Assembly: GCA_038117265.1 (NCBI GenBank)
Contig: JAYOFO010000008.1
Location: 287-64,286 of the forward strand
Direction: 5' to 3'
DNA length: 64,000 nucleotides
From: Rhodospirillaceae bacterium
GTDB lineage: Bacteria > Pseudomonadota > Alphaproteobacteria > UBA6615
Part shown: positions 33,712 to 57,806 of the stretch, piece by piece
How positions within the stretch are numbered: the first letter of the stretch is position 1
How the letters are laid out: the number at the start of each line of letters is the position of its first letter
The notes under the pieces: generated by a model
What the model was told of the DNA's origin: nothing
Databases searched by the model: none
Seen by the model: only the letters and a program-made list of their open reading frames with translations
Position numbers and translations under genes: made by a program

Positions 33712-34452
33712 ATGACGCACGAACTCTCCGCGTCCTGGCAGGGCGGAGGCCTGCCCGTCGGGGCTGCGCAGGTCCTGCCCGACCGTCCGGCCCGGGCCGA
33801 CCGGCTCGTTCTGTTGCCGCCGGCAGACGTGCCGCGCCGGCGGATCAGCCGCGGGACCCGGGGACGTGCCGCTCTGCTGCACGCGCTCGCGCACATCGAA
33901 CTGAACGCGATCGATCTGGCGTGGGACATCGTCGCGCGTTTTGCCCCCATGGGGTTGCCCCACGGCTTCTTCGACGACTGGGTGCGCGTCGCCCATGAAG
34001 AGGCAACGCATTTCGAACTGCTGACCACACGCCTCGCCGAACTCGATACCGCCTATGGCGACCTGCCCGCCCATGACGGGCTCTGGGACGCTGCGGTCTC
34101 GACCGGGCACGATCTTGCGGCCCGCCTGGCGGTGGTCCCGCTCGTGCTGGAAGCCCGCGGCCTTGACGTCACACCCGCGATAATCGAACGGCTGCGCGCC
34201 GTCGACGACCACGCCAGCGCCGCGGTGCTGGAGGTCATCTATCGCGATGAGATCGGCCATGTCGCGATCGGGCGGAACTGGTTCGAACATATCTGCGCCG
34301 AACGCGGCTACGAACCCGAAACGCAGTGGCAGAATCTCGTCGAGACCTGTTTCCGCGGCGTGCTGAAACCGCCCTACAACGTCGACGCACGCACGGCGGC
34401 CGGGTTTCCCGAGAGCTGGTATATGGGGATCTCGGCCTACATCGACGGCTAG
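33712..34452 (+). CDS. DUF455 ferritin-like domain protein
   Basis: Helical ferritin-like residues (HIELNAIDLAWD, HEEATHFELL, EARGLDVTP, DEIGHV); no in-frame start upstream of ATG 33712. Confidence 0.55.
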   Translation: MTHELSASWQGGGLPVGAAQVLPDRPARADRLVLLPPADVPRRRISRGTRGRAALLHALAHIELNAIDLAWDIVARFAPMGLPHGFFDDWVRVAHEEATHFELLTTRLAELDTAYGDLPAHDGLWDAAVSTGHDLAARLAVVPLVLEARGLDVTPAIIERLRAVDDHASAAVLEVIYRDEIGHVAIGRNWFEHICAERGYEPETQWQNLVETCFRGVLKPPYNVDARTAAGFPESWYMGISAYIDG

Positions 34453-34718
34453 AGGCGATGGCGCACGCAGGTGACCGCCAGAAGGTCCGTTCCGTCGGAG
34501 CCGATGGCACGAATTCGAATGGCCTGCTGCGCACCGATCAGATCCCAGACCTGGGCATGGGACGCCGGACACACGCTGGCGAGGCTCGCGGACTGGAGGT
34601 CGGCGGGCAGGCGCGCAAAGTCCTTCCGGCGTTCGCCTGACACGCGCAGACGCACCTCGATCCGCGATCCGTCCGATGTCACCCCCTCGACCGCACCCGC
34701 GCGCTGCGGGTTTCGGTC

Positions 34719-34922
34719 TTAGTAGACGCCCAGATAATCGGCCGCGACATCGAGGCGCGACATGGCCGGCGCCTCGCCGTCGACCGGATAGACGTAGAAC
34801 CTGTAGGCGATGAGCGAGGCGATCACCGCCAGACAAACTGCGGTGAGCGGCTTCATGGGAACCCAGAACCCGCCCGGCGGACCACCGTCATAGACCTGGC
34901 GCATCCGGGTCGGGGGTTGCAT
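34719..34922 (-). CDS. Small hypothetical membrane protein downstream of prfB
   Basis: Hydrophobic segment MKPLTAVCLAVIASLIAYRFYVY; likely real start at the internal Met; no homology recognised. Confidence 0.25.
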   Translation of the reverse strand: MQPPTRMRQVYDGGPPGGFWVPMKPLTAVCLAVIASLIAYRFYVYPVDGEAPAMSRLDVAADYLGVY

Positions 34923-34928
34923 GGCCGG

Positions 34929-36084
34929 CTAGTCCGCCTCTGCCGCGTCGGTTTCGCCGCTTCCGGTCGACGCCTCGCCGCCACCGCGCCCCACCCGTGC
35001 GGCAAGCGAGGCTTCGAGATAGCGATCGATATCGCCGTCCAGGACGGCCTGGGCATTGCCGGTTTCCACGCTCGTGCGCAGGTCCTTCACCATCTGGTAG
35101 GGGTGCAGCACATAGGACCGGATCTGGTGTCCCCACCCGATTTCGGTCTTCGAATCCTGCTCGGCCTGCGCCTCTTCCTCGCGCTTCTGCATCTCGTGCT
35201 CGTAGAGGCGGGCACGCATCATCGCCATCGCCTGCGCGCGGTTGCGATGCTGCGAACGATCGTTCTGGCACTGGACGACGATCCCCGTGGGGATATGGGT
35301 CAGGCGAACCGCGCTGTCGGTCTTGTTGACGTGCTGACCGCCCGCACCCGACGCCCGGTAGGTGTCGACCCGCAGATCCTTGTCCTCGATCTCAATCTCG
35401 ATCGCATCGTCGATCACGGGATAGACCCAGACCGAGGCGAAGCTGGTGTGGCGTCTGGACTGGCTGTCGAAGGGCGAGATGCGGACCAGGCGGTGGACGC
35501 CGGACTCGGTCTTGAGCCAGCCATACGCGTTGGGCCCGTTGATCTGGAACGTCGCCGATTTCAAACCCGCCTCTTCGCCGGCGCTTTCCTCGATCCAGTC
35601 GACCTTGTAGTCGTGCGCCTCGGCCCAGCGCAGGTACATGCGCACCAGCATCGACGCCCAGTCCTGGGATTCGGTGCCGCCCGCGCCGGCGTTGATCTCG
35701 ATGTAACAGTCGTTGCCGTCGGCTTCGCCCGAGAGCAGGCTTTCCAGTTCCAGCTTCTCGGCCCGCGCCTGCAGCCCCGCTATGGCCGCCTCGCCCTCGT
35801 GCACGACATCGTCGTCGTCCTCCGCCTCGCCGAGCTCGATCAACGTGATCGCGTCTTCGAGCTCGCTCTCGAGACCACGGACCTGCTGCACGGATTTCTC
35901 GAGCCGGGTGCGGTCGCGCAGGAGCTTCTGCGCGTGTTCCTGATCGTCCCACAGGCACGGATCTTCAGCCTCGGCATTCAGCCGGTCGAGGCGTTTGAGT
36001 GCGCTGTCCCAGTCAAAGATGCCTCCGCATGAGGCTCAGGGAGTCTTCGATCGATTCCACCAGATGGCTTATTTCCGCACGCAT
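34929..36084 (-). CDS. prfB: Peptide chain release factor 2 (PrfB) with programmed +1 ribosomal frameshift
   Basis: Frame 0 [23 protein letters not shown] ends at in-frame TGA inside CTT TGA C (36018-36012), preceded by SD-like GGAGG; +1 frame continues [12 protein letters not shown]... through GGQ motif [19 protein letters not shown] is join(36084..36016,36014..34929). Confidence 0.9.
36007..36024 (-). promoter_or_regulatory. RF2 autoregulatory +1 frameshift site (GGAGG-CAT-CTT-TGA-C)
   Basis: Sequence cGGAGGcatCTTTGAC on the minus strand; the E. coli equivalent is AGGGGGtatCTTTGAC. Confidence 0.85.
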
Positions 36085-40338: not shown

Positions 40339-42888
40339 ATGCCAAAGCGCATGTTGATCGAGGCGACACATCCCGAGGAGACCCGGGTCGTTGTTGCCGA
40401 CGGCAACGACCTTCTTGAATTCGATTACGAAACCTCGACCAAGCGTCAGATCAAGAGCAACATCTATCTGGCCAAGGTCACACGCGTCGAACCCTCCTTG
40501 CAGGCGGCGTTCGTCGATTTCGGCGGCAACCGCCACGGTTTCCTGGCCTTCAACGAAATCCACCCCGACTACTACCGGATTCCGGTCGAGGATCGCGAGA
40601 AGCTGCTCGCCGAGACCGAGGAAGAGGAGGAGGAAGACGGGGCCGAGGGCAACGGCGAGGACGGCGAAGAGGTCGAGGTCGTCGGTGACGGCCATGACGA
40701 GGACATTCACGACCTCAGCGACGAGCATCGCCGGCGGCTGCGCAAGCTCACCCGCACCTACAAGATCCAGGAGGTCATCAAGCGCCGCCAGATCCTGCTG
40801 GTGCAGGTGGTCAAGGAAGAGCGCGGCAACAAGGGTGCGGCCCTGACGACCTATCTGTCGCTGCCGGGCCGATACTGCGTGCTGATGCCCAACACCTCTC
40901 GCGGCGGCGGGATCAGCCGGAAGATCACCGACGCCAAGCACCGCAAGAGCATGAAGGCGATCCTTTCCGACCTGGAAGTTCCCGAGGGCATGGCGGTCAT
41001 CATGCGCACCGCGGGTGTCGGACGGACCAAGGCCGAGATCAAACGCGACTTCGAGTATTTGCGTCGCCTGTGGGACGAGATTCGCGAAACCACGCTCGAT
41101 TCGACTGCCCCGGCCCTGATCTACGAGGAAGGCGACGTCATTAAGCGGGCGCTCCGCGACATTTACGACCGCGACATCGACGAGGTGCTCGTCGAGGGCG
41201 AGGAAGCCTACAAGTCGGCCAAGGCGCTGATGCGTACGATGATCCCGTCGCACGCAAAGCGCGTGCAAAAGTACGAGGACGTCGGAATCCCGCTGTTCAA
41301 TCGCTATCAGATCGACCAGCAGCTCGACGAGATTCACGAGCCGATCGTGCAGCTCAAGTCCGGCGGCTACATCGTCATCAACACCACCGAGGCGCTGGTC
41401 GCAATCGACGTGAACTCCGGCCGATCGACGCGCGAACGCAACGTCGAGCAGACCGCATACCGGACGAATCTCGAGGCGGCCGACGAGGTCGCACGCCAGC
41501 TTCGCCTGCGCGACCTGGCGGGGCTGGTCGTCATCGACTTCATCGACATGGATGTTTCGCGCAACAACCATGCGGTGGAGCGCCGGCTCAAGGAGGCGAT
41601 GAAGTCCGATCGCGCGCGCATCCAGATCGGGCGCATCTCGGCCTTCGGACTCCTCGAACTGTCGCGCCAGCGCATGCGGCCGAGCCTACTCGAGGCGCAC
41701 TCCCAGCTTTGCCCCGTCTGCGCCGGATCGGGATTCGTGCGTTCGACGGAATCGACCACCATGTCGATCCTGCGGGAGCTTGAGGAAGAGGGCCTGCGAA
41801 AGCGCGCCAGCGAGGTGACCGTCACCGCGCGCACCGATGTGGCCCTCTACCTGCTCAACCAGAAGCGGGATTCGCTGCGCGACATCGAGGATCGCTACGG
41901 CTTCAAGATCCTCGTCCTCGCCGACGGCGAACTTGCGCCCTCGGAGTACGAAATCGAGCACACGCGCGCCGCATCCGGCGATGGCGAGGAATCGGCAGTC
42001 GAGGAGAAATCCGATGAAGGCGGTTCGCGTCGCCGCTCGCGCCGCGGACGCCGCCGGCCCGAAGAGGAGAGCGCCCGCAGCGCCGACCGCAGCGACAGTG
42101 CCGAGGATGCGGCTGACGAGGCGGAAGCCGGTGCCGAGGACGAGGATGGCGACGACGAGGACGACGAGGAGCGCGGCTCGCGCCGTGGCGGACGCCGGCG
42201 TGGGCGTCGCGGCGGCAGACGTCGCCGTCGCACGACGGACGGGGACGAGACGGGAGTCGAGGCGAGCGACGTCGACGAAACCGCGGAGAGCGGCGACGCC
42301 GACGAAGCTGTCGATGCGACCGAGGAGGCCGAGCGCGGCGCAGGAAGCAGTGACGAAGACGACGAGGATCGGCCGCGCCGCCGGCGCCGGCGGCCCCGCC
42401 GTCGGGGGCGGCGCACCCGTAACGGCGAAGACGATGTGAATGGCGACGAGGCCGTTGCGGTCGCTGCGGAAGCGGAAAGCGCCGACGCGGTAAGCGAAGA
42501 CGACGCAGCGGCCGAGGACAACGCCACCGCTTCGGAGCCCGGCATCGACGCGCATGACGAGCCGGACGACGACGAGGACGAAGAGAACGCGGTCGATACC
42601 GACCTTGACATTCCCGAGCCCGTGTCGAATGCGATGGAGCGCGACGACGTGGCGGACATCGACCTGCCGCCGGAAACGGAAAGCGCCGACGACGCGGAAG
42701 ACGGGCACGAGACAGCGGACCCCGTTGCGGCTGCGGACGACACCGTTGAGGCGCCGGACGTCACCGACGAACCGGAGCCCGAGCCGCGTGCGGAACAGGA
42801 GCCTGAGCCGGAGCCCGTCGCCGAGGTTCCCGATGACCGGCCGCGCCGGTCGGGATGGTGGAGCCGCGCCACGTCGAGCGCCGAGTAG
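40339..42888 (+). CDS. rne: Ribonuclease E
   Basis: N-terminal S1 and catalytic domains (MLIEATHPEETRVV, IYLAKVTRVEPSLQAAFVDFG, DNase I-like and Zn-link CPVCAGSG); acidic insertion EEEEEEDGAEGNGEDGEEVEV within the S1 region; low-complexity Arg-rich/acidic C-terminal scaffold. Confidence 0.9.
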   Translation: MPKRMLIEATHPEETRVVVADGNDLLEFDYETSTKRQIKSNIYLAKVTRVEPSLQAAFVDFGGNRHGFLAFNEIHPDYYRIPVEDREKLLAETEEEEEEDGAEGNGEDGEEVEVVGDGHDEDIHDLSDEHRRRLRKLTRTYKIQEVIKRRQILLVQVVKEERGNKGAALTTYLSLPGRYCVLMPNTSRGGGISRKITDAKHRKSMKAILSDLEVPEGMAVIMRTAGVGRTKAEIKRDFEYLRRLWDEIRETTLDSTAPALIYEEGDVIKRALRDIYDRDIDEVLVEGEEAYKSAKALMRTMIPSHAKRVQKYEDVGIPLFNRYQIDQQLDEIHEPIVQLKSGGYIVINTTEALVAIDVNSGRSTRERNVEQTAYRTNLEAADEVARQLRLRDLAGLVVIDFIDMDVSRNNHAVERRLKEAMKSDRARIQIGRISAFGLLELSRQRMRPSLLEAHSQLCPVCAGSGFVRSTESTTMSILRELEEEGLRKRASEVTVTARTDVALYLLNQKRDSLRDIEDRYGFKILVLADGELAPSEYEIEHTRAASGDGEESAVEEKSDEGGSRRRSRRGRRRPEEESARSADRSDSAEDAADEAEAGAEDEDGDDEDDEERGSRRGGRRRGRRGGRRRRRTTDGDETGVEASDVDETAESGDADEAVDATEEAERGAGSSDEDDEDRPRRRRRRPRRRGRRTRNGEDDVNGDEAVAVAAEAESADAVSEDDAAAEDNATASEPGIDAHDEPDDDEDEENAVDTDLDIPEPVSNAMERDDVADIDLPPETESADDAEDGHETADPVAAADDTVEAPDVTDEPEPEPRAEQEPEPEPVAEVPDDRPRRSGWWSRATSSAE

Positions 42889-42915
42889 GCCCCGACCCGA
42901 AGGCGCCGCCTGGAA

Positions 42916-44076
42916 TCAGGCGATTGTCCCGGCGCGCCATGCGCGCAGGCGCGCGATCGCCTGGCGCATGTCGTCTTCGGTGCCCGCGAACGAGAACCTT
43001 ATGAAGGCGTTGCCGCGATAGGGGTCGAAGTCCAGCCCCGGCGTCGCGGCCACATGCGCCTCGTTGAGCATGCGCCGGCAGAACTCCGGGCTGTCGTTGG
43101 TCATCGCCCCGACATCGGCATAGATGTAGAAGGCGCCGTCGGCCGGAGCGAGACGGTCGAAGCCGACCCGGGGCAGTTCCGCGAGCAGGATTTCGCGGTT
43201 GCGGGCATAGGCCGCCACATTGGCGCGCAACTCCTCCTCGCTGTCGAACGCGGCGATCGCGGCGGCCTGCGAGAGCGACGGCGGAGAGATGAACAGGTTC
43301 TGGGTCAGGCATTCGACCGCCCGCAGCATCGACGTCGGCACCACGAGCCAGCCGAGCCGCCAGCCGGTCATCGAGAAGTACTTCGAGAAGCTGTTGATCA
43401 CGACCGCCTCGCCATCATGGGCGAGCGCGGTGACCGCATCGTGGCCGTAGGTGATGCCGTGGTAGATCTCATCGGAAATGAAACGGATCCCGCGCGACCG
43501 GCAGTAATCTACCAGAGTGCGCATGCCCGCGTCGTCGACCATCGTACCTGTGGGGTTCGATGGGCTCGCGATGATCAGGCCGTCGAGATCGCCGTCGAGG
43601 TCGTCGAGCCGCGCCGGCGTCGGCTGGTAGCGATCCGCCAATTGTGTCTCGACCACGACCGGCTCGATGCCCAGCGCCGACAGGATGTTCCGGTAGGCCG
43701 GGTAGCCCGGCGCCGCGAGGGCCACCCGGTCGCCGACATCGAACGCCGCGAGAAACGCCAGCAGGAAACCGCCGGACGACCCTGTCGTTACGACGACCTG
43801 TGCCGGATCGACAACGACCCCGTAGAAATCGGCATAGTGCCTGGCGATCCGTTCGCGCAGCGCGGGAACGCCGAGCGCGTCGGTATATCCCAGCCGATCA
43901 TCGCGCAGCGCCTGTGCGGCGGCTTCGAGAACCTTCGCCGGAGCCGGAGTGCCGGGCTGGCCCACCTCGAGATGCACGATGTCCTCGCCCTGTGCGGCAA
44001 GCGCATTAGCCTCGCGCATGACATCCATGACGATGAACGGGTCGATGCGCCCGCGCACCGAAGTCTTGAGCGTCAT
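42916..44076 (-). CDS. Pyridoxal phosphate-dependent aminotransferase (class I/II, aspartate aminotransferase family)
   Basis: 386 aa, PLP lysine context SFSKYFSMTGWRLGW, SPSNPTG motif. Confidence 0.8.
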   Translation of the reverse strand: MTLKTSVRGRIDPFIVMDVMREANALAAQGEDIVHLEVGQPGTPAPAKVLEAAAQALRDDRLGYTDALGVPALRERIARHYADFYGVVVDPAQVVVTTGSSGGFLLAFLAAFDVGDRVALAAPGYPAYRNILSALGIEPVVVETQLADRYQPTPARLDDLDGDLDGLIIASPSNPTGTMVDDAGMRTLVDYCRSRGIRFISDEIYHGITYGHDAVTALAHDGEAVVINSFSKYFSMTGWRLGWLVVPTSMLRAVECLTQNLFISPPSLSQAAAIAAFDSEEELRANVAAYARNREILLAELPRVGFDRLAPADGAFYIYADVGAMTNDSPEFCRRMLNEAHVAATPGLDFDPYRGNAFIRFSFAGTEDDMRQAIARLRAWRAGTIA

Positions 44077-44084
44077 CGTGTGAC

Positions 44085-45635
44085 CTACTCGTCTGCGCTA
44101 ACAGCGAGACCGTGCGAACGCGGGTCCTTGACGAACTGACAGGTTTGCACGCGCGGCAGACCGCGGGGGCAATAGAACCCGTTGATCCGCGCGATCTCCG
44201 CATCGACTTCCAGCGCGTGTCCCAACTCCCGCAGCGCGGCGCGCGACGCTTCCGGCATCGCGGCCTCGACATGGGACTTGTCGGGTTCGCCGGTGTTAAA
44301 GGCGCGCGGTGCCGCGACCGCACCGACCATGTCCTCTGCATCGTCCCGCAAGGTGCGCAAGGCAACCGCGGCAACCGCGACGGGGCTCGGTCCGGTTCCC
44401 GCGGCCGCAAAGTACGTCAGACCGACATTCTCGTTCGCAACGAGCGCCACCGAGGGAAACGATGCCCTTATGGACCCCGGCACGGCGAGCAGGATGCCCG
44501 TCCCCGGCGCCACGGCGCCGGCCCCGAACGGACCGTTCATCGTGAACGAACAGGCAACGGTGCGCCCCTGATTGTCGACGGCGACAATGCTCGCCCCGTC
44601 ATGCGCCCTGCCCGTGGCAAACATCGCACCGCCGACCACCGGCCGGTGTGCGGTGTCGGATACCTCACCGATGAGCGAGCCGATCGCACCCTCTGCAACG
44701 AGCTCGGCCGCACTGCGACCCGACAGAGCGTTCCGGTAGGCGCGTGCGCCATACTCAAGAAGCAGGTGATCGCGGACGGGGCCGGTGCCATCGCTGCCGG
44801 AGAACCGTTCGTCGGCCTGTGCCGCAGCCCAGACCTGGGCCGAGACCGTACCGCCCGAATTGTGCGGGAAAAACAGGAACCGGTCGCCGAGTTCGAACCG
44901 CACCGGGGTCTGGAGTTCGGGCTTGTAGTTTCGCAAATCCTTGATCGTCACGCCGCCACCCGCGGCACGGACAGCCGATGCGAAGTTCCGACCCAGTGTT
45001 CCGTCGTAGAAAGCGCCCGGCCCGAGAGTGCGGATGTTCGAGATTACGGCCGCAAGGTCGATCTGCCGCAGCAGCCGTCCCTCGGCGACCACGCCCCCGC
45101 CGAAGATCGCACGTGCGCCGGGGTCCGCCTCGACCCTGTTGTGCGACTCCGCGTAATCGCGCGCGAAGGCACGCGAGACCGCATGGCCGTCGCGCGCAAA
45201 CTCCTCGGCCGGCACCAGGAGATCGGCCCAGTTGAGTTCGCCATAACGCGCGTGCAAGAGGAACATGCCGCGCACATTCCCGGGCACGGCAAAGGACGCA
45301 TTGCCGTCTGCTGCGCGGCCCGGCAAGAAAGAGATCACCTCGGTCTGAATCCGGACCGCATCGTGGACCAGGCAGACACCGCCGCCGCCCAGGCTGGCAG
45401 ATCCCGGCATCGTGACGGCCATTGTGAAATAGGCCGCAACCGCCGCATCCGCTGCCGTTCCGCCGGCCGACAAGACCTCGCGTCCAACGAGGGCAGCATG
45501 CGGCTCATCGGCAATCAGACCACCGAAGAACCCCTCGATGTATCCGATGTCGCCTTGCTGCGGGCCGCCACCGGTGCATGCGGCCAGTGCCAGCCCCGCA
45601 AGCACCACGAACCGGGAGCCTGATTGACGCCACAT
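44085..45635 (-). CDS. ggt: Gamma-glutamyltransferase family protein (probable lipoprotein)
   Basis: Lipobox signal MWRQSGSRFVVLAGLALAAC, GGT-type motifs around the Thr nucleophile region (SFTMNGPFGAG); upstream part of the long ORF rejected. Confidence 0.75.
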   Translation of the reverse strand: MWRQSGSRFVVLAGLALAACTGGGPQQGDIGYIEGFFGGLIADEPHAALVGREVLSAGGTAADAAVAAYFTMAVTMPGSASLGGGGVCLVHDAVRIQTEVISFLPGRAADGNASFAVPGNVRGMFLLHARYGELNWADLLVPAEEFARDGHAVSRAFARDYAESHNRVEADPGARAIFGGGVVAEGRLLRQIDLAAVISNIRTLGPGAFYDGTLGRNFASAVRAAGGGVTIKDLRNYKPELQTPVRFELGDRFLFFPHNSGGTVSAQVWAAAQADERFSGSDGTGPVRDHLLLEYGARAYRNALSGRSAAELVAEGAIGSLIGEVSDTAHRPVVGGAMFATGRAHDGASIVAVDNQGRTVACSFTMNGPFGAGAVAPGTGILLAVPGSIRASFPSVALVANENVGLTYFAAAGTGPSPVAVAAVALRTLRDDAEDMVGAVAAPRAFNTGEPDKSHVEAAMPEASRAALRELGHALEVDAEIARINGFYCPRGLPRVQTCQFVKDPRSHGLAVSADE

Positions 45636-55233: not shown

Positions 55234-55879
55234 TGAAAAAAAATCGGCCAAGACCGCATTCTCCGAAGATCACAGGCGCGGACTGCATCTGCCGCTTGCC
55301 GCCGTGCTAATCGGCGGCGTGACGCTTCTTATCGCCGCCGCGGTGGGAAGTGTCCTGCTGACCACCCTGACGAGCGCGACGCGCAGCACATTCGAACTCG
55401 TGGCCGAACGCGCGGAAGGCACGCTCGACAAGTATATCGGCGATGCGATCATGGCGTTCTGGGGTGCGCCCGAGCATTTGCCCGACCACGCCGACCGCGC
55501 CTTGCGTGCCGCCGCCGAAATCCAGCGGCGCGTATGTGCCGACAATGACGCGCGGCGCGCACGCGGCGAACCGCCATTGGCGATCCGGATCGGCGTCCAC
55601 ACCGGTCCGGTCGTGGTGGGCAACATCGGCTCGCGCAGTCGCGTCAACTACACCATCGTCGGCGATACCGTGAACACCGCCTCGCGGATCGACTCGCTGG
55701 CCAAGGACTTCGCATCCGAGGAGGACTGCATCGTCCTCGTGAGCGGGGACACGTGCGCGCACGTGACCGAAGCTGCGGGGGCCGGCTTCGTTCTGACCGG
55801 TCTCGGCGATCACGAAATCCGCGGGCGCCAAGGCACGGTCGCGGTGTTCCGGCTGGACGCCGGCGAGGCGTCGGGCTAA
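55234..55879 (+). pseudogene. Remnant class III adenylate/guanylate cyclase (TM helix fused to C-terminal half of the cyclase homology domain)
   Basis: LDKYIGDAIMAFWGAP...IRIGVHTGPVVVGNIGSRSRVNYTIVGDTVNTASRIDSL matches the second half of a CHD; the N-terminal half with the first metal-binding Asp is absent and replaced by a hydrophobic segment. The nearest ATG (55234) is out of frame across an A8 homopolymer. Confidence 0.5.
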
Positions 55880-55889
55880 GCAGCCGACC

Positions 55890-56630
55890 ATGGACGCCGA
55901 AGAACTCCAACGCCGCGTTGCGGCCTTCCCCTACTGGTACCACCGGATCGAATTGCCCGGCGGCGTGACAACGCCCGGCTGGGCGCCGCTGTCTGTGGAT
56001 GCCTACCGCATCCCCGACGACCTGACGGGCAAGCGGGTGCTGGATATCGGGGCCTGGGACGGTTTCTGGACCTTCGAGGCGCTGCGCCGCGGCGCCAGCC
56101 AGGTGATCGCCATCGACGATTTTTCCGACTTCGTCGGCCAGATCGAGGCCGAGGACCGACGTGCCTGGGAAACGTTCGACCTGTGCCGCGAAGCGCTCGG
56201 GCATGACCATGAGCGGTGCCAGCGCCACGAGATGACGGTCTATGACCTGGCCCCCGAGACGTTCGGGACGTTCGATGTCGTGCTCTGCTTCGGCGTCCTC
56301 TATCACCTGCGCTGGCCGATGTATGCGATCGACCGGATGGCGGCCGTTTGCACCGGCGATCTGTTCATGGAATCCGCCATCGCCGACGACTTCAGCGCCT
56401 ATCGCGGCGGGCTGGGCGCGGGCTTCGGCGGCGACATGGTGATGGAGTTCTATCCCAACGACGAGTACGGCGAGAACGAGACCAACTGGTGGGCCCCGAC
56501 CCTGCGCTGCATGGGAAGCATGGTGAAGGCGGCAGGCTTCGATGCCGTTCGGGGATGGAAGCTGACCGACGCGCCGGAGCGGGTCTCGCAGTGCCGCGGC
56601 TTCGTGTGGGGCAGCCGCACCGCCGGCTAG
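55890..56630 (+). CDS. Class I SAM-dependent methyltransferase (DUF1698/CmoB-like fold)
   Basis: FPYWYHRIELPGG N-terminal motif, SAM motif I VLDIGAWDGFWTFEAL, motif II DVVLCFGVLYH. Confidence 0.65.
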   Translation: MDAEELQRRVAAFPYWYHRIELPGGVTTPGWAPLSVDAYRIPDDLTGKRVLDIGAWDGFWTFEALRRGASQVIAIDDFSDFVGQIEAEDRRAWETFDLCREALGHDHERCQRHEMTVYDLAPETFGTFDVVLCFGVLYHLRWPMYAIDRMAAVCTGDLFMESAIADDFSAYRGGLGAGFGGDMVMEFYPNDEYGENETNWWAPTLRCMGSMVKAAGFDAVRGWKLTDAPERVSQCRGFVWGSRTAG

Positions 56631-56702: not shown

Positions 56703-56918
56703 ATGACGACCGTCATCTCCGAACACGCCACCGTCCACACGGCCCGGGCACGGGCCGAAGGCGATGATTTGTGGATCGACAACGATGCCCTGGAACCGGC
56801 CACGGGCTGGTCGATCAAGCCCGAGGGTTTGTGTCACGGCCCGATCTGCGTTCCCGTTCCGCGCGATGCGGCCGGCGCCTATGTGCGCGACGGCGCGGTC
56901 AACATCGCGGCGTTCTAG
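56703..56918 (+). CDS. Small hypothetical protein (71 aa) with C-x5-C motif, ends at in-frame TAG, in the same frame as the downstream redoxin ORF
   Basis: MTTVISEH...GWSIKPEGLCHGPICVPVP...AAF; no family recognised; could be an independent small gene or a decayed N-terminal segment of the downstream ORF. Confidence 0.3.
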   Translation: MTTVISEHATVHTARARAEGDDLWIDNDALEPATGWSIKPEGLCHGPICVPVPRDAAGAYVRDGAVNIAAF

Positions 56919-56966
56919 CGCCGGCTCGACAAGCTGATCGCGCGCTCCGAGGCGGGCGACGTCTGG

Positions 56967-57806
56967 GTGTTGGGCGAAGGGGCCGCGGATCGCCTGGCGG
57001 CGCTGCGCTCGCTGGAGGCGCCCGATTTCACCCTGCCCGATGTCGATGGCAATCCCGTCTCGCTGTCGAACTTCCGGGGCAAAAAGGTCCTGCTGGCCAG
57101 CTGGGCATCCTGGTGACGCTGCCGCGAGGACCTGTCCGTGTGGCAGGAACTATATGACGAGCTGAAGGAAACGGGTTTCACCATCATCGCCGTGGCGCTC
57201 GATTCCGACCTGGATGCCGTGCGCCACTGGTACGAGGCGGCCGGGAACCCGGACTATCCGGTTCTCATCGACCGCACGCACCGCCTCGCCGACCTGTACA
57301 ATCTGGTGAACGTGCCGCAGGCGATCTGGATCGACGAGGACCGGAAGATCGTCCGGCCGCCGGAGACGGCGGGCTATTACGATTCTATTCGCTTCATGGA
57401 CCCCGAGACGATGGCCGTTCCCGAGGCCGAAGCCGCAAAGGTCGGCGAGGCACGCAGAATCTATCTCGCCGCCATCCACGACTGGATCGAACACGGCGCC
57501 GACAGCCGCTTCGCCAAACCCGCGAACGAGGCGGCAACCGGGATGCCCGAGGCGACCGAAATGACGGCGCTGGCGCACGCGCTGATCCGCCTCGGCCGGC
57601 ACCTGAACGACCTCGGTCGCGCCGACGAGGCCGCGCGGCACATGGCCGAGGCGAGCCGGCTGCACCCCGATTCCTGGGCCATGTGGCGGCAGGCAGCGGA
57701 AAAGAACGCCGCCGGGCTGGCGACGACGCCGGAGTTCCTCGCGCGCGTTCGGGCGCTCGGCGAGAAGCGCTACTACCCGCCGCCCGACATCGAGGGCATG
57801 CCCTGA
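56967..57806 (+). CDS. TlpA/redoxin-family thioredoxin-fold protein with in-frame TGA at the redox-active position (candidate selenoprotein, or pseudogene)
   Basis: APDFTLPDVDGNPVSLSNFRGKKVLLASWASW-TGA-RCREDL...TGFTIIAVALDSD aligns with the TlpA/ResA block FRGK.LLVNFWASWCxPCRxE with TGA (57114-57116) in place of the first active-site Cys; the frame stays open to 57806 (C-terminal helical extension). Start GTG 56967 or TTG 56970 after in-frame TAG 56916. Confidence 0.45.
57114..57147 (+). other. In-frame UGA plus downstream hairpin (candidate bacterial SECIS position)
   Basis: UGA at 57114-57116; CUGCC (57119-57123) pairs with GGCAG (57142-57146) enclosing an imperfect inner helix with a GU-containing apical region; not validated. 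Confidence 0.25.

Follow-up and report, generated by a model that had tools for sequence, protein, structure and literature searches.

Among the proteins reported from the Global Ocean Sampling data is a family named "Prx-like (UGC-containing)", with 46 selenocysteine (Sec) sequences and 855 cysteine (Cys) homologues (PMC2398784). The term 'UGC' is not mentioned in the main text of Peng 2016 (PMC5029168). In NCBIfam the family is represented by NF041054, an equivalog model called "ResA-like WAxxUGC motif-containing protein" (WAxxUGC_long). The gene described here lies on the forward strand at positions 56703-57806 of a stretch of 64,000 nucleotides (the window) of contig JAYOFO010000008.1, from assembly GCA_038117265.1 of a Rhodospirillaceae bacterium. 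Its product belongs to this already known family, of which the first description dates from 2008 and for which NCBI has a model. We consider it very likely that a UGA codon in this gene is recoded as Sec in a ResA/TlpA-like oxidoreductase of three domains, and that the copy of the gene in the window is interrupted by a recent TAG mutation.

In fdhF of Escherichia coli, an upper hairpin of 17 nucleotides (nt) is located 11 nt after the UGA and has the essential loop nucleotides G23/U24 (PMC8659212). Domain 4 of SelB binds such hairpins and holds release factor 2 (RF2) off the A site (PMC5311926). We compared the locus in the window with this selenocysteine insertion sequence (SECIS), with the NCBIfam family, and with the thioredoxin-fold proteins ResA and TlpA.

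The in-frame UGA and its conservation

Read from the ATG at 56703, the frame consists of 367 codons and ends with an ordinary stop, the TGA at 57804-57806. It contains two internal stops, a TAG at codon 72 and a TGA at codon 138 (57114-57116). This extent of the complete UxC selenoprotein gene, of the three-domain ResA-like type, was established from the translation, the full-length alignment and the match to NF041054. A preliminary description of this DNA, made from the sequence alone, had placed the start of the frame at the GTG at 56967. That GTG is merely the first start codon past the TAG, and the true start is the ATG at 56703. On the other hand, the preliminary description was right about the TlpA/ResA-like redoxin block with an in-frame TGA, both in its coordinates and in its character, and also in its statement that the frame continues after this codon, since no stop precedes the terminal TGA.

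By direct reading, positions 57111-57125 are TGG TGA CGC TGC CGC, and the protein sequence around the codon is L-A-S-W-A-S-W-[TGA]-R-C-R-E-D-L-S-V-W-Q. The TGC at 57120-57122 encodes Cys140, which is the partner in the U-x-C pair and an invariant column of the alignment. Pfam assigned residues 105-217 (57015-57353) to a thioredoxin-fold redoxin domain, with 72.4 bits for AhpC-TSA and 60.8 bits for Redoxin (E 4e-20), and gave weak TPR signals at the C-terminus. The TGA is thus inside the redoxin domain.

The matches obtained in a protein search fell into two classes. The full-length homologues, of ~365 amino acids (aa), covered the whole query at ~50% identity and possessed T-W-A-S-W-C-G-C-R at the site, where the alignment placed the TGA on the first Cys of W-C-G-C-R. 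That is, the homologues carry C-G-C and not CxxC at this position. The preliminary description had suggested that the TGA stands at the position of the nucleophilic Cys, and this agrees with the alignment. It had also counted the single residue between the Sec and the Cys in U-R-C as an argument against Sec; however, a spacing of one residue is the norm in this family (C-G-C/U-G-C).

The second class consisted of dozens of ORFs (open reading frames) of ~220 aa, which matched only the part after the TGA, with 55-74% identity. These are gene-caller truncations of the kind typical of Sec genes. On the contigs behind them, an upstream ORF in the same frame ends in TGA, and this includes two syntenic contigs (L003 and L004) with 74% identity.

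A scan of one genome per species found 496 relatives, and we counted the codons at the site in the best 80 loci. The Cys column was TGA in 79 of these and TGC in the remaining one, and the conservation of the TGA position is therefore far beyond chance. The carriers were found in Alphaproteobacteria, Burkholderiales, Rokubacteria/Methylomirabilota, SAR324, Dehalococcoidia and Verrucomicrobiia. In none of 84 loci was there a further stop in the 115 codons before the TGA or the 215 codons after it. Since the TGA is shared by 79 species in which the rest of the frame is intact, a decay lesion cannot account for it.

Of 73 distinct Sec forms, 69 had Gly as the residue between the Sec and the Cys. 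A small alphaproteobacterial clade differs in this respect: the window and the loci L001, L002, L004 and L005 have U-R-C, and L003 has U-C-C. The loci L003 and L004, from two JGI samples, encode proteins that are identical except at this residue, which is TGT in the former (L003:2977-2985, U-C-C) and CGT in the latter (L004:1637-1645, U-R-C).

A conserved hairpin downstream of the UGA

We stacked the Sec-form sequences in register and analyzed them with RNAalifold. The program returned a single hairpin, from +17 to +33 when the U of UGA is taken as 0, with the consensus Y-Y-U-G-Y-C [C-G-U-G-U] G-G-C-A-G-R. In the window this 17-nt SECIS hairpin occupies 57131-57147 and begins 14 nt past the UGA. 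The stem is formed by pairing of 57131-57136 with 57142-57147, and the loop is C-G-U-G-U (57137-57141), in which a covarying pair, 57137:57140, encloses an invariant G-U at 57138-57139. A SECIS-like fold downstream of the UGA had been expected in the preliminary description, and a conserved, covarying one was indeed found; but the hairpin proposed there as the SECIS, starting 3 nt past the UGA, was off by ~11 nt and is without support from covariation.

Among 72 distinct Sec-form sequences, 96% of the cells were paired, against 35-65% when the 3' partners were slid, and none of 500 shuffles matched the observed pairing or covariation. Compensatory changes occurred in three pairs of the hairpin, in counts uncorrected for phylogeny. 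The pair formed between a Leu and a Gln codon was CG in 48 sequences, UG in 18 and UA in 6, with no mispair, and each CAA came together with TTG. The outer stem pair was CG in 30, UA in 18 and UG in 4. The loop positions 23:26 (U of UGA = 0) were C:G in 64, G:C in 7 and A:U in 1, around the invariant G24-U25.

In order to see whether the hairpin depends on the codon at the site, the Sec forms were compared with a control set of 104 distinct Cys-form sequences, obtained from metagenomes with a degenerate W-A-S-W-C-G-C pattern. The complete signature, defined as the five inner pairs, the loop pair and the G-U, was present in all 73 distinct Sec forms and in 7 of the 104 Cys forms. When only sequences encoding the same peptide, D-L-S/P-V-W-Q, were considered, it was present in 69 of 69 Sec forms and 7 of 20 Cys forms (Fisher p = 5.5e-11). 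The Val codon that provides G24-U25 was invariant in the Sec forms, whereas the Cys forms had A, G, V, L, E or I at this residue. These results indicate that there is a constraint at the RNA level only where the codon is UGA.

The hairpin resembles that of fdhF in that it is 17 nt long, is located within the coding sequence soon after the UGA, and presents the apical G-U that is essential in fdhF. The two differ in the spacer, which is 14 nt here and 11 nt in fdhF, and in the numbering of the apical G-U, which is nt 25/26 here (U of UGA = nt 1) and G23/U24 in fdhF. Both have an unpaired U adjoining the loop, but it is on the 3' side here and is the 5' bulged U17 in fdhF. Unlike in fdhF, a conserved lower stem was not detected in the hairpin of this family. 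The pair that closes the loop of fdhF is G22:C25, which may be compared with the covarying loop pair of the family. An Rfam scan of 57050-57250 gave chance matches only, Rfam being without a bacterial SECIS model, and a scan of the whole window gave only tRNA-Met.

By analogy with fdhF, the hairpin at 57131-57147, which presents an apical G-U dinucleotide and starts 14 nt downstream of the UGA, would bind domain 4 of SelB and thereby hold Sec-tRNASec beside the ribosome when the UGA is in the A site. The SelB-bound Sec-tRNASec would in this way outcompete RF2, and the UGA at 57114-57116 would be read as Sec.

The long hairpin that starts 3 nt after the UGA was rejected as the SECIS. It is the minimum-energy fold of the window sequence alone (z = -1.6). 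In the family its cells were paired in 86.6%, its pairs fall in invariant coding columns with one compensatory cell, and it breaks where CAG is changed to CAA (slide -2). The relation of the two folds can be seen in the sequence: two copies of CUGYC (57119-57123 and 57132-57136) compete for a single GGCAG (57142-57146), so that the folds are mutually exclusive. The upstream copy is within the codons for (Gly/Arg)-Cys-Arg and the downstream copy within those for Leu-Ser/Pro, and covariation was found only with the downstream copy.

Protein architecture and the interrupted allele

The encoded protein begins with a domain of ~100 aa that has a CxxxxC pair, continues with the redoxin domain, and ends with a helical, TPR-like domain of ~130 aa. 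In an alignment of 57 sequences, the N-terminal domain was kept in all 57, and G42, C44 and C49 were invariant; the codons of Cys44 and Cys49 are within 56832-56849. This domain also possesses a conserved A-T-G-W-x-x-K-P-x-G motif, and its CxxxxC pair may be another site for redox chemistry or for a metal. The N-terminus of the translation, MTTVISEHATVHTARARAEGDDLW, contains by direct reading no hydrophobic segment, signal peptide or membrane anchor.

For structure prediction with AlphaFold we took P0002, which at 54% identity is the nearest Cys form of full length; the model was confident, with a pLDDT of 94.1 and a pTM of 0.91. In this model Cys138 directly precedes the helix 139-157, where thioredoxin folds have their nucleophilic Cys, and this is consistent with the role that the preliminary description had given to the TGA. 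The best match of the model in a Foldseek search against the PDB was 1st9, ResA of Bacillus subtilis (E 5.6e-12, target-normalised TM-score 0.78). Only the central domain of the model was matched, as the query-normalised TM-score of 0.30 reflects, and Foldseek found no PDB counterpart for the N- and C-terminal domains.

The predicted central domain thus resembles ResA and TlpA in having a thioredoxin-like fold with the ResA-type insertion (the top matches were 1st9 and 1su9, at 25-29% identity, and TlpA, 1jfu, was also matched) and in having its active site at the N-terminus of helix alpha-1. In contrast to ResA and TlpA, UxC/CxC replaces CxxC in every family member examined, and there are the two additional domains. 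Moreover, ResA of B. subtilis and TlpA of Bradyrhizobium are membrane-anchored, extracytoplasmic proteins, whereas the sequence of the selenoprotein is without an N-terminal anchor. With respect to peroxiredoxins (PF00578), the AhpC-TSA match of 72.4 bits is well above the gathering score of 26; however, the context L-A-S-W-A-S-W-U-R-C has no P...T and thus differs from the peroxidatic motif PxxxTxxC/U (PMC13188914). We think that the protein would be a soluble thiol-disulfide oxidoreductase, in which the U-R-C centre at the start of helix alpha-1 (U-G-C in most relatives) presumably cycles between the selenol/thiol and selenenylsulfide states.

The features shared with NF041054 are the full architecture of ~360 aa, the 367 codons being aligned end to end with the ~365-aa homologues; the Sec as the first residue of U-x-C after W-A-S-W; the existence of Cys-form homologues; and the redoxin/AhpC-TSA domain. 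Apart from the score, two features are different. The window has W-A-S-W-U-R-C in place of W-A-x-x-U-G-C, with the spacing and both redox residues kept, and this allele has an amber codon at Trp72.

The amber codon, TAG at 56916-56918, results from a G-to-A transition at 56917 in the Trp codon TGG. At this column Trp was found in 83 of 84 other loci, none of which has an extra stop, and the copy in the window was the only interrupted one among 85. The Logan contig of SRR26337560 was identical to the window. Its counterpart in SRR26337561 differed at two bases only, with G at 56917, which makes the codon TGG (Trp), and C at 56935, which makes the codon CCG (Pro). Two JGI contigs, L207 (17.3 kb) and L208 (9.7 kb), were 99.93% identical to the window and possessed both TGG and CCG; TGG was also present in the sibling L002, likewise 99.93% identical, and the more distant relatives L003 and L004 had both TGG and CCG (Pro78). 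The TAG is therefore derived and strain-specific. The preliminary description had noted this TAG, 66 codons upstream of the TGA, and had held it against Sec. The TAG is real, but it is a separate lesion of Trp72, absent from the siblings.

The second derived change, at 56935, converts CCG (Pro78) to CTG (Leu) and lies 18 nt downstream of the TAG. Over 17.3 kb, L207 and the window differed by 10 single-nucleotide polymorphisms (SNPs) and one indel. The changes at 56917 and 56935 are two of these 10 SNPs, both in the N-terminal domain and both from G:C to A:T; such a pair could have arisen by recombination of a small patch or by clustered damage, or selection may have been relaxed once the nonsense mutation was present.

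Judging from the sequence, the full-length protein is most likely lost in the strain with the TAG, and the allele probably became a null or truncated one very recently. This G-to-A transition, which is separate from the UGA, would have produced either a fresh null or, at best, an allele from which re-initiation at GTG 56967 gives a product truncated at its N-terminus. This GTG is in the same frame, 48 nt past the TAG. The sole Shine-Dalgarno-like sequence, a GAGG at 56949-56952 found by direct reading, is 14 nt from it, which is a poor spacing.

Near the selenoprotein gene, a short ORF at 55304-55879 (+) encodes 191 aa of a dCache-HAMP-adenylate/guanylate cyclase. Compared with the 616-aa orthologue in L003, approximately residues 64-468 are missing in frame (junction ...AERAEG|TLDKYIGD), so the remnant has lost the sensor domain, and its Pfam match to the catalytic domain covers positions 38-177 of 183, the first 37 being lost. 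The same short cyclase ORF is present in the siblings L207 and L208, in which the redoxin frame has TGG. The truncation is therefore older than the TAG and is no sign of general decay. The preliminary description had thus observed a true truncation of the neighbouring cyclase, but it does not indicate general decay, and no damage is apparent in the remaining genes of the window.

An ORF for a class I methyltransferase (55890-56630, +, 246 aa; Pfam Methyltransf_9/DUF1698, E 6e-12) separates the cyclase remnant from the selenoprotein gene; it is not found at this position in the syntenic L003. The gene order in L003 and L004 is pccA, cyclase, selenoprotein gene, pccB, ATP12 and AsmA. The one indel against L207 is an extra A in the window at 55236, between the starts of pccA and of the cyclase remnant. 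Among 83 loci, no gene family, including those for cytochrome-c maturation, was a neighbour of the selenoprotein gene in more than 11.

Alternative explanations and implications

A Cys in the homologues, a conserved TGA in an open frame, and a covarying hairpin with an apical GU are the classical comparative evidence for a selenoprotein, and at the level of sequence they support the proposal of a selenoprotein made in the preliminary description. Several results nevertheless weigh against it. A 2026 review treats the members of this family as predicted selenoproteins of high confidence that are not experimentally verified, and our literature search found no experimental incorporation of selenium for any member. 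The Sec machinery was also not found: ARAGORN detected no tRNA-Sec in the window and 60 loci, and tblastn with SelA, SelB and SelD of E. coli K-12 detected no selA, selB or selD in the window and ~1.9 Mb of loci. As for the covariation, all seven G:C loop pairs came from Rokubacteria/Methylomirabilota and probably represent one event. In addition, the competing long hairpin, which buries the G-U, is more stable (-20.1 kcal/mol for a 65-nt stretch) than the local SECIS fold in the window (-7.7 kcal/mol). The fold with the upstream copy might occlude the SECIS until a ribosome arrives; a ribosome on the UGA would melt it, and its 5' arm would then be inside the ribosome.

The last of these points is the score against NF041054, of which the curated cut-off is 300 bits. 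When Cys was put in for the Sec and Trp for the TAG, the window protein matched profile positions 6-352 of 354 (E ~1e-85) at 284.4 bits, under the cut-off, and the sibling L002 allele scored 288.5 bits. Five U-G-C forms from other phyla scored 290.7-304.8 bits, and one of the five passed; the Cys forms scored 275.7-294.6 bits. Overall, one of the seven Sec forms tested reached 300 bits (280.8-304.8; scores were taken for the window, L002, L003, L006, L046, L049, L073 and L082). Since most of the true U-G-C forms tested are also under 300 bits, the shortfall reflects a tight cut-off and not a different family.

The lack of Sec machinery in the window and the fetched loci would also suit a UGA that is read as a standard amino acid, through near-cognate read-through by Cys or Trp or through a reassigned code. 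We regard this as extremely improbable. Many well-supported genes of the window have TGA as their stop, the selenoprotein gene included. The window also carries prfB, the gene of RF2, at 36084-34929 (-), with a canonical programmed +1 frameshift: the ATG at 36084, preceded by GGAGG, opens a frame of 24 codons that ends in CTT TGA C (36018-36012), and the main frame continues in +1. UGA is therefore not globally reassigned. Moreover, the carriers of the gene belong to many phyla using the standard code, and there would be no explanation for a conserved hairpin of the SelB type that is specific to forms with TGA. The frameshift of prfB is itself a case of UGA recoding, a well-known one and the second in the window. 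Three other pairs of ORFs that share a frame (515-2782, 34449-36035 and 41686-44097) were rejected as candidates for a second selenoprotein gene, being separate genes or non-coding. It is just as improbable that the TGA is a decay lesion, which arose by a change of TGC/TGT to TGA or by a 3-nt deletion in a CxxC and left a dead redoxin that never contained Sec. Such a lesion would fit the second stop in this allele, the truncation of the adjacent cyclase, and the resemblance of U-x-C to a damaged CxxC when it is set against canonical TlpA/ResA. But 79 of 80 other species also have TGA at this column, in frames that are intact; the Cys forms are C-G-C and not CxxC; the SECIS signature is specific to forms with TGA; and the truncation of the cyclase is an older, unrelated event, shared by siblings that have no premature TAG.

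A different question is whether this strain still has a fully functional gene, the TAG being a sequencing or assembly error, or being bypassed by a start at GTG 56967. Such a start would give a selenoprotein of 279 residues that has the redoxin and TPR parts but lacks the N-terminal domain. Past the TAG, the Sec codon and the SECIS are intact, as are the redoxin and C-terminal domains; the GTG is in frame, and both alleles coexist in related samples. However, the TAG was recovered independently in NCBI, JGI and Logan assemblies, so that an error is unlikely, and the GAGG is poorly spaced. The retention of the domain with Cys44/Cys49 in every aligned sequence, together with the absence of an interruption at any other locus, argues that this domain is needed. 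We therefore think that a functional allele is unlikely. It is quite doubtful that the U-R-C/U-C-C clade is a functionally shifted subfamily in which the amber allele still yields a working, truncated selenoprotein from GTG 56967; if this were true, the N-terminal CxxxxC domain would be dispensable. We thus prefer recoding of the UGA as Sec in a gene that has recently been interrupted. The preliminary description had offered a rare UxC selenoredoxin and a recently inactivated redoxin as alternatives. The former applies to the TGA, although the protein is not rare, and the latter to the TAG.

The case does not alter knowledge of selenocysteine decoding, and it matters mainly for annotation. Gene callers divide the gene into two ORFs, of ~137 aa and ~222 aa, that are labelled "hypothetical"; this was so in the assemblies that we examined and seems to hold for dozens of others. 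The NCBIfam cut-off missed most of the members tested. The family is probably widely under-annotated. The case also shows clearly how, within one gene, a recoded UGA, which is conserved across phyla and accompanied by a covarying SECIS, can be told apart from a true nonsense TAG that occurs in one strain only. To the known family, our analysis adds the U-R-C/U-C-C variant of the motif and a precise SECIS in which a loop pair covaries. It also adds an amber mutation of recent origin, which probably inactivates the copy in this strain and would represent a naturally segregating knock-out allele.

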